A stretch of 64,000 nucleotides of DNA from Escherichia coli (GTDB taxonomy: Bacteria > Pseudomonadota > Gammaproteobacteria > Enterobacterales > Enterobacteriaceae). This document shows, piece by piece, positions 53,001 through 56,000 of this stretch. The stretch lies in the NCBI RefSeq assembly GCF_016026235.1, contig NZ_CP065613.1. The stretch is one strand, 5' to 3'. Made by a program: the position numbers. The stretch's first letter is position 1. The number at the start of each line of letters is the position of its first letter.

Positions 53001-56000
53001 ACATGTACGAAGCTGCCGGTGGCGATAAGAAATTTTATCGTGAAGGGGTATTTGTTAACGGCGCGGCACAGGGTTACCTGATCGATAAGAAAACCGCCGA
53101 CCAGTACAAAATCACCAACATCGCACAACTAAAAGATCCGAAGATCGCCAAACTGTTCGATACCAACGGCGACGGCAAAGCGGATTTGACTGGCTGTAAC
53201 CCTGGCTGGGGCTGCGAAGGTGCGATCAACCACCAGCTTGCCGCGTATGAACTGACCAATACCGTGACGCATAATCAGGGGAACTACGCAGCGATGATGG
53301 CTGACACCATCAGTCGCTACAAAGAGGGCAAACCGGTGTTTTACTACACCTGGACGCCGTACTGGGTGAGTAATGAGCTGAAGCCAGGGAAAGATGTGGT
53401 CTGGTTGCAGGTGCCGTTCTCTGCACTGCCGGGCGATAAAAATGCCGATACCAAACTGCCGAATGGCGCGAATTACGGCTTCCCGGTCAGCACCATGCAT
53501 ATCGTTGCCAATAAAGCCTGGGCCGAGAAAAACCCGGCAGCAGCGAAACTGTTTGCCATTATGCAGTTGCCAGTGGCAGATATTAACGCCCAGAACGCCA
53601 TTATGCATGACGGCAAAGCCTCAGAAGGCGATATTCAGGGCCACGTTGATGGCTGGATCAAAGCCCACCAGCAGCAGTTCGATGGCTGGGTGAATGAGGC
53701 GCTGGCAGCGCAGAAGTAATTTTTATTCGGGCGGATAAGGCGTTTTCGCCGCATCCGCCGCTCTGTACACAATGCCTGATGCGACGCTGGCGCGTCTTAT
53801 CATGCCTACAAACCACACCGCACATTTCAACTGATCTTACCCAGCAATAGTGGACACGCGGCTAAGTGAGTAAACTCTCAGTCAGAGGTGACTCACATGA
53901 CAAAAACAGTATCAACCAGTAAAAAACCCCGTAAACAGCATTCGCCTGAATTTCGCAGTGAAGCCCTGAAGCTTGCTGAACGCATCGGTGTTACTGCCGC
54001 AGCCCGTGAACTCAGCCTGTATGAATCACAGCTCTACAACTGGCGCAGTAAACAGCAAAATCAGCAGACGTCTTCTGAACGTGAACTGGAGATGTCTACC
54101 GAGATTGCACGTCTCAAACGCCAGCTGGCAGAACGGGATGAAGAGCTGGCTATCCTCCAAAAGGCCGCGACATACTTCGCGAAGCGCCTGAAATGAAGTA
54201 TGTCTTTATTGAAAAACATCAGGCTGAGTTCAGCATCAAAGCAATGTGCCGCGTGCTCCGGGTGGCCCGCAGCGGCTGGTATACGTGGTGTCAGCGGCGG
54301 ACAAGGATAAGCACGCGTCAGCAGTTCCGCCAACACTGCGACAGCGTTGTCCTCGCGGCTTTTACCCGGTCAAAACAGCGTTACGGTGCCCCACGCCTGA
54401 CGGATGAACTGCGTGCTCAGGGTTACCCCTTTAACGTAAAAACCGTGGCGGCAAGCCTGCGCCGTCAGGGACTGAGGGCAAAGGCCTCCCGGAAGTTCAG
54501 CCCGGTCAGCTACCGCGCACACGGCCTGCCTGTGTCAGAAAATCTGTTGGAGCAGGATTTTTACGCCAGTGGCCCGAACCAGAAGTGGGCAGGAGACATC
54601 ACGTACTTACGTACAGATGAAGGCTGGCTGTATCTGGCAGTGGTCATTGACCTGTGGTCACGTGCCGTTATTGGCTGGTCAATGTCGCCACGCATGACGG
54701 CGCAACTGGCCTGCGATGCCCTGCAGATGGCGCTGTGGCGGCGTAAGAGGCCCCGGAACGTTATCGTTCACACGGACCGTGGAGGCCAGTACTGTTCAGC
54801 AGATTATCAGGCGCAACTGAAGCGGCATAATCTGCGTGGAAGTATGAGCGCAAAAGGTTGCTGCTACGATAATGCCTGCGTGGAAAGCTTCTTTCATTCG
54901 CTGAAAGTGGAATGTATCCATGGAGAACACTTTATCAGCTGGGAAATAATGCGGGCAACGGTGTTTAATTATATCGAATGTGATTACAATCGGTGGCGGC
55001 GGCACAGTTGGTGTGGCGGCCTCAGTCCGGAACAATTTGAAAACCAGAACCTCGCTTAGGCCTGTGTCCATATTACGTGGGTAGGATCACAACAAGCTAT
55101 CTTTCGCCCCCATTCATAAACATCCGCTATTATTGATTTCCAGCTTAATCATCACCTGATAAACAAAAATAATGACTAAACCCACTCATGAGCTTAGCCC
55201 GGCGCTGATCGTGCTGATGTCGATCGCCACCGGTCTGGCGGTCGCCAGCAACTATTACGCCCAACCGCTGCTCGACACTATTGCGCGTAACTTTTCCCTC
55301 TCCGCCAGTTCGGCGGGCTTTATTGTTACCGCCGCGCAGTTGGGCTATGCCGCAGGTCTACTGTTTCTTGTTCCCCTCGGTGATATGTTTGAACGCCGCC
55401 GCCTGATTGTCTCGATGACCTTACTGGCAGCGGGCGGTATGTTAATCACTGCCAGCAGTCAGTCACTGGCGATGATGATCCTCGGTACGGCATTAACCGG
55501 TTTATTCTCAGTCGTGGCACAAATTCTGGTTCCGCTGGCAGCGACGCTGGCTTCACCGGATAAACGCGGCAAAGTGGTTGGCACCATTATGAGCGGTCTG
55601 CTGTTGGGGATATTGCTGGCACGAACCGTTGCCGGGTTACTGGCAAACCTCGGCGGCTGGCGCACCGTCTTTTGGGTTGCCTCGGTGTTAATGGCTCTGA
55701 TGGCGCTAGCATTATGGCGTGGTCTGCCACAAATGAAATCAGAAACCCACCTCAACTACCCACAGTTGTTGGGTTCCGTTTTCAGCATGTTTATCAACGA
55801 TAAGATCCTGCGCACCCGCGCATTGCTGGGCTGCCTGACTTTTGCCAACTTCAGCATTCTCTGGACCTCGATGGCCTTTTTGCTTGCCGCTCCACCTTTT
55901 AACTACAGCGATGGCGTAATTGGTCTGTTTGGACTTGCGGGAGCTGCCGGAGCGTTGGGCGCTCGTCCGGCGGGCGGTTTTGCCGACAAGGGCAAATCGC

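Follow-up and report, generated by a model that had tools for sequence, protein, structure and literature searches.

A complete IS3 element with a CAAC target-site duplication in the proX-ygaY spacer of one Escherichia coli lineage

The window analyzed here is the whole stretch of 64,000 nucleotides taken from the Escherichia coli contig NZ_CP065613.1 (assembly GCF_016026235.1). Around the site under study, the following features are found, all of them on the plus strand: (i) proX (52727-53719), the last gene of proVWX, with a match to Pfam OpuAC (1.6e-52), whose name and start were taken from the PGAP annotation of the near-identical locus in E. coli FDAARGOS_943; (ii) a REP/BIME-type repeat (53729-53806) recognized as Rfam naRNA4 (RF02564; 73.5 bits for a gathering score of 59.5), which ends 25 nt to the left of the insertion sequence; (iii) the insertion sequence IS3 (53832-55089); (iv) an AT-rich spacer of 82 nt (55090-55171; 35% GC) that has been kept with ygaY; (v) ygaY (55172-56356), identified by its open reading frame and Pfam match as an intact gene for an MFS protein of 394 aa, with its ATG at 55172; and (vi) ygaZ (56480-57217) and ygaH (57207-57542). 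The order of the genes downstream, i.e., ygaZ, ygaH, emrR, emrA and emrB, is the usual one, and IS3 interrupts no gene. The original prediction placed the element 83 bp upstream of ygaY, which agrees, under another counting convention, with the 82 nt that lie between the end of the IS and the ATG. It also described ygaY as intact here and as a pseudogene in K-12, and both annotation and alignment bear this out: K-12 ygaY has a 7-bp deletion (alignment columns 255-261, codon 85-87) and, in consequence, is annotated as a pseudogene.

Several other features were observed elsewhere in the window. It starts in an ssrA/intA-adjacent island, with features on the minus strand at 2186-5496 and 5448-13662. 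The island encodes a NACHT/STAND protein of 1475 aa that matches a PD-(D/E)xK-like nuclease at its N-terminus, PADLOC Avs1b (4e-11) and Pfam NACHT (3e-12), and these matches make it look like the product of an Avs-type antiphage gene. The adjoining ORF of 1260 aa, together with ORFs of 565 and 497 aa, returned no Pfam or PADLOC match. At the syntenic place, FDAARGOS_943 is devoid of the DNA found at window positions 5863-14036. A tRNA gene (31091-31163, minus strand), which corresponds to tRNA-Ile in the FDAARGOS_943 annotation, is located at the island boundary. Further along, on the plus strand, there are three tandem naRNA4/REP325-type units (39398-39474, 39487-39564 and 39577-39654), each of them above the Rfam gathering score, the fourth naRNA4 unit being the single one beside IS3. 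Finally, the MicA sRNA (61664-61735, plus strand) is present between luxS and gshA.

The insertion sequence is a structurally complete IS3 of 1258 bp, oriented on the plus strand and with TG...CA ends. It begins at 53832 with TGATCTTACCC (in a longer form, TGATCTTACCCAGC) and terminates at 55089 with GGGTAGGATCA. A repeat-pair search delimited its two terminal inverted repeats: the left one (IRL, 53832-53870), which starts with TG, and the right one (IRR, 55051-55089), which ends with CA. They are imperfect repeats of 39 nt each, 72% complementary to one another. The IRL was matched once in the whole window and, hence, the IS3 copy is the only one there. Two overlapping reading frames are encoded on the plus strand: (i) orfA (53897-54196; 99 aa), with the Pfam HTH domain HTH_Tnp_1; and (ii) orfB (54193-55059; 288 aa), with the Pfam domains rve (5.8e-28), rve_2 and HTH_21. 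The DD(35)E triad of OrfB is intact (D135, D195 and E231), with 35 residues separating the second D from the E.

The fusion of both products would depend on a predicted -1 frameshift at the sequence A-AAA-G (54159-54163, plus strand), where the orfA frame reads CTC CAA AAG GCC and which we take to be the slippery site of IS3. A -1 slip at this point joins orfA to the orfB frame, yielding a predicted OrfAB fusion of 387 aa. At this locus of FDAARGOS_943, the PGAP annotation has a joined CDS of equal length, labelled as a 'programmed frameshift'. In a comparison with the NCBIfam equivalog transpos_IS3 (cutoff 160), the predicted fusion obtains 390.9 bits. Folding places a 10-bp stem 5 nt past the slippery site (54169-54178 paired with 54195-54204, plus strand); the stability of the 111-nt segment that includes this stem is not unusual (z = -1.16), and its sequence is identical to that of K-12 IS3. 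Rfam searches at gathering thresholds returned no family within the element. Each of the sequence-level features that define IS3 and that could be tested is present at 53832-55089, and the element seems, by its structure, capable of moving. A complete IS3 at these positions had been claimed from the outset, and its coordinates proved to be exact, with both terminal repeats and intact orfA and orfB.

Regarding its identity, the same element in FDAARGOS_943 carries the annotation 'IS3-like element IS3 family transposase', and hits with 99.1-99.8% identity to annotated IS3 copies were obtained across many genomes. In a gapless alignment to K-12 IS3A, only three differences were found over the 1255 shared nucleotides, so that chance is not an issue for this assignment. 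The differences are: (i) a synonymous change in orfA at 54031; (ii) CGG to TGG at 54940, which results in OrfB R250W and is private to the lineage of the window; and (iii) AAG to CAG at 55045, which results in OrfB K284Q. The K-12 copies IS3A-IS3E (insE/insF) share with the window element the length of 1258 bp, the TG...CA ends, the 39-nt inverted repeats and the A-AAA-G sequence in the orfA/orfB overlap. By contrast, the chromosomal site is new, and the duplication at its ends measures 4 bp versus 3 bp at IS3B (ATC) and IS3E (GTC). In MG1655, IS3A is without its first 3 nt and no direct repeat flanks IS3C or IS3D, the 3-bp duplications being limited to IS3B and IS3E; as these cases recall, IS3 copies resident in a genome often have a history after insertion. 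Other members of the IS3 family from E. coli and Shigella, i.e., IS2, IS150, IS600 and IS911, have the same two-ORF frameshift layout, a DDE/rve transposase and duplications of 3-5 bp, but their sequences are different, and the window element is IS3 proper.

The distribution of the insertion was studied with a query across both junctions and with a reconstructed empty site. Out of 5426 complete E. coli genomes, the filled site was found in just one, that of FDAARGOS_943 (NZ_CP065615.1), while the empty site was contiguous in 5403; 22 complete genomes, FDAARGOS_943 among them, matched the empty-site query without having a contiguous empty site. The original prediction would have been undermined by an IS3 resident at this site in most strains, which is very far from the frequency observed. 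The exact left junction, CACATTTCAACTGATCTTACCCAGCAA, had no match in the GTDB species-representative genomes, a search that is uninformative beyond the E. coli set. As for the literature, a full-text search gave no paper naming ygaY together with IS3; published work gave neither a serotype nor a sequence type for the lineage, FDAARGOS_943 being mentioned solely in a BLAST table.

The window genome and FDAARGOS_943 share this IS3 insertion, with identical position and duplication. Along window positions 32001-64000, they are 99.947% identical (15 mismatches and 2 gaps, i.e., about 0.05% apart). Unlike the window genome, FDAARGOS_943 contains an IS600 in ypjA, an IS1 in a YpjCB-family gene and a cluster of ISSso6, IS66-family and IS2 elements. 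In the stretch compared there (15677-32000), the window has an intact ypjA of 1571 aa (23461-28176, minus strand) and other island DNA; both genomes are thus closely related but differ greatly in their IS load.

The exact YgaY allele of the window led to further carriers. The 24 contigs read (of 35 index blocks) represent three gene contexts, in which similar places were pooled automatically under the contexts shown, and in each of them an IS3-type gene lies directly upstream. One of the three contexts, GCA_031665325.1, is identical to window positions 51172-60356. Most of these contigs are drafts that begin inside the IS: the IS3 insertion accounts for the breaks found right before ygaY in short-read assemblies of this lineage. 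Among the matches listed, the nearest complete genome with an empty site is EC2641, with a divergence of 0.43% across 5.6 kb. The spacer between proX and ygaY, together with the 5' end of the latter gene (53720-55400), shows about 96% identity to most E. coli and 99.8% identity to EC2641, which indicates a divergent local allele that occurs both with and without the IS.

Some sequence change has accumulated within the element. In orfB, the window has a T at 54940 (R250W) and FDAARGOS_943 a T at 54725 (Q178L), each change being private to its own lineage, and the draft GCA_021505815.1 has the canonical, ancestral base at both positions. The copy has, therefore, gained two independent non-synonymous changes since the insertion. 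Assembly noise was considered as the sole cause of these two differences between the IS3 copies of the window and FDAARGOS_943, and was rejected since both genomes also differ at 15 further positions in 32 kb and in IS content, and since a third assembly carries the ancestral base at both orfB sites. Separately, a contig of the draft GCA_012772235.1 begins right after 54940, as would fit coexisting C and T copies of IS3 in that genome. An identical R250W OrfB is also found at unrelated loci in other assemblies, which hints at past mobility of this variant. On these comparisons, the insertion is young with respect to the species and older than the diversification of the clade, that is to say, a clade marker rather than a fresh jump. 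The description of the insertion as relatively recent is, therefore, adequate on the scale of the species only: it is not a one-off event, as it is common to genomes that differ in sequence and IS content.

The tetranucleotide CAAC is present at both ends of the element (53828-53831 and 55090-55093), so that the filled site reads TTTCAAC[IS]CAACAAG, within ...CACATTTCAAC[IS3]CAACAAGCTATC...; at the left junction (53831/53832, plus strand), the flank CACATTTCAAC meets the element at TGATCTTACC. The empty site, ...CACATTTCAACAAKCTATC..., contains TTTCAACAAK, with one CAAC, in the four genomes compared (EC2641, K-12 MG1655, O157:H7 TR01 and ET350). The 4-bp duplication is real, since four uninterrupted genomes hold CAAC once. 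The two CAAC copies had been interpreted as a target-site duplication, and this interpretation holds. The accompanying statement that finding CAAC only once at the empty site would speak against it was worded backwards: a single copy is precisely what a duplication predicts, and it is what was found. The three new IS3 insertions reported from the LTEE have duplications of 4, 3 and 4 bp (PMC11708052, Table S1). A 4-bp duplication is, then, ordinary for IS3, whose range is 3-4 bp.

The same bases could be generated in other ways. Given the target CAACAA, a 3-bp duplication, of either CAA or AAC, plus one extra C brought from the donor site would regenerate the filled site, as TTT-CAA-[C+IS]-CAA-CAAG or TTTC-AAC-[IS+C]-AAC-AAG, and 3-bp duplications do exist at K-12 IS3B and IS3E. 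Nevertheless, the transfer of a donor C is an additional and unusual event, which makes this explanation less economical; two of the three LTEE insertions just mentioned have 4 bp, and the ends of the element are exactly canonical at 1258 bp. All in all, it is very improbable. The match between both CAAC copies might also be coincidental, the element having been brought in when two IS3 copies recombined or through an adjacent rearrangement. Such histories occur, as illustrated by the K-12 copies IS3C and IS3D, which have no flanking repeat. At this locus, however, the two flanks keep collinearity with the empty site of 5403 genomes, the duplicated bases are exactly four, and the gene order proX-IS3-ygaY-ygaZH-emrR is otherwise unaltered. 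The collinear empty sites and the single CAAC of the four genomes compared already contradict this explanation, whose probability is close to negligible.

A single transposition of IS3 into the proX-ygaY spacer, with duplication of CAAC, vertical inheritance within the lineage and a small or nil effect, is very probably the correct reading of the locus. Nothing observed speaks against the identity of the element or against the duplication. According to it, a canonical IS3, with its DDE transposase produced through -1 frameshifting between orfA and orfB, would have transposed once, presumably by a copy-out/paste-in route, to a point 25 nt beyond the REP downstream of proX and 82 nt ahead of the start codon of ygaY. 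The target would have undergone a staggered cut of 4 nt, whose repair would have given rise to the CAAC duplication. The event would go back to the ancestor of an E. coli lineage that is rarely sampled and that comprises, besides the window genome and FDAARGOS_943, some two dozen draft assemblies, and the element would have been inherited vertically since then. As a result, 1262 bp (1258 bp of the element plus 4 bp of duplication) have been added between proVWX and ygaY, and the right end of the element, with putative weak outward promoter motifs, points at ygaY-ygaZH. The phenotypic consequence is most likely small or nil, although the presence of the insertion in every clade member examined, which is compatible with near-neutrality, could also reflect selection. 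In any case, events of this kind, in which IS3 settles at a new intergenic site and is passed on within a lineage, are already known.

The possible influence of the element on ygaY must be considered in the light of its right end. Two published outward motifs are present there, on the plus strand, unmutated and facing ygaY: (i) a promoter-like motif, TTTAAT-15 nt-TACAAT (54964-54990), found by motif scoring and described in PMC12095673; and (ii) the motif TTGGTG...CAATTT (55008-55038), attributed to Charlier et al. (1982) in PMC12095673 and named P3R in PMC8860574. The published evidence on the promoter of the wild-type IS3 end is conflicting. In Kanai et al. (2022; PMC8860574), where Charlier 1982 is cited, the outward promoter P3R is described as 'strong'. 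The case of argE, with IS3 upstream of the gene as a 'mobile promoter', is attributed to Charlier, Piette and Glansdorff (1982). On the contrary, in a massively parallel reporter study from 2025, IS3 ends were picked since their promoter activity was undetectable, and a pause or termination signal that approximately halves expression was located in the last 50 bp of the IS3 end (PMC12095673). The present case resembles that of argE in that the right end faces a co-oriented downstream gene and TTGGTG/CAATTT is present; it differs in that 82 nt of native spacer are kept. Neither a promoter scan nor a weight-matrix scan detected a hybrid promoter across the junction, i.e., with the -35 in the IRR and the -10 in the flank, and no convincing candidate for a native ygaY promoter was found in either allele.

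A regulatory effect of IS3 on ygaY is plausible in view of these motifs. The right end of the element, or read-through from the transposase promoter, might drive or raise the transcription of ygaY-ygaZH, and the insertion might have become fixed for that reason: IS3 is co-oriented with ygaY, its right end lies 82 nt from the ATG, both outward motifs are intact, no terminator-like site was found on the plus strand between them and ygaY, and every clade member examined carries the insertion. But the undetectable activity of IS3 ends and the signal that halves expression (PMC12095673), as well as the lack of a hybrid -35/-10 promoter at the junction, weigh against it; besides, an insertion can become fixed in a clonal lineage without selection. 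Such an explanation is, on balance, unlikely, and so is an activation of ygaY-ygaZH by IS3 in itself. The effect might instead be architectural. In K-12, a repressive H-NS bridge links the downstream regulatory element (DRE) of proV to a ygaY fragment, and a StpA-dependent insulation between proX and ygaY normally keeps ygaY insulated from proVWX transcription (Rashid et al., 2023; PMC10656529). The proU11_NlaIII primer of the bridge fragment maps to window position 55376 and the proU10 primer to 53731; IS3 sits between both and, hence, makes the loop longer by 1262 bp and leaves the ygaY fragment untouched. From the published bridge and insulation, it could be proposed that the 1.26-kb insert acts as an insulator or architectural element that blocks the transcriptional spill-over from proVWX into ygaY. 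Against this proposal, the fragment equivalent to proU11 and the AT-rich 82-nt spacer are still intact beside ygaY, the bridge does not mediate the insulation of ygaY, and ygaY is without a signal in some of the H-NS ChIP data sets (PMC10656529). An architectural or insulating effect is, then, decidedly improbable, even more so than a promoter effect. There is similarly little chance that IS3 was fixed through a rewiring of the proVWX-ygaY boundary, whether by bringing transcription into a poorly expressed ygaY-ygaZH or by making the repressive H-NS bridge longer or weaker.

The inherited, probably near-neutral transposition described above provides a clean, precisely bounded marker for one lineage of E. 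coli that includes the reference strain FDAARGOS_943, and is of little importance beyond typing. If it were true that the insertion alters the expression of ygaY-ygaZH or proVWX, it would constitute a natural case of an IS at an experimentally mapped H-NS bridge boundary.
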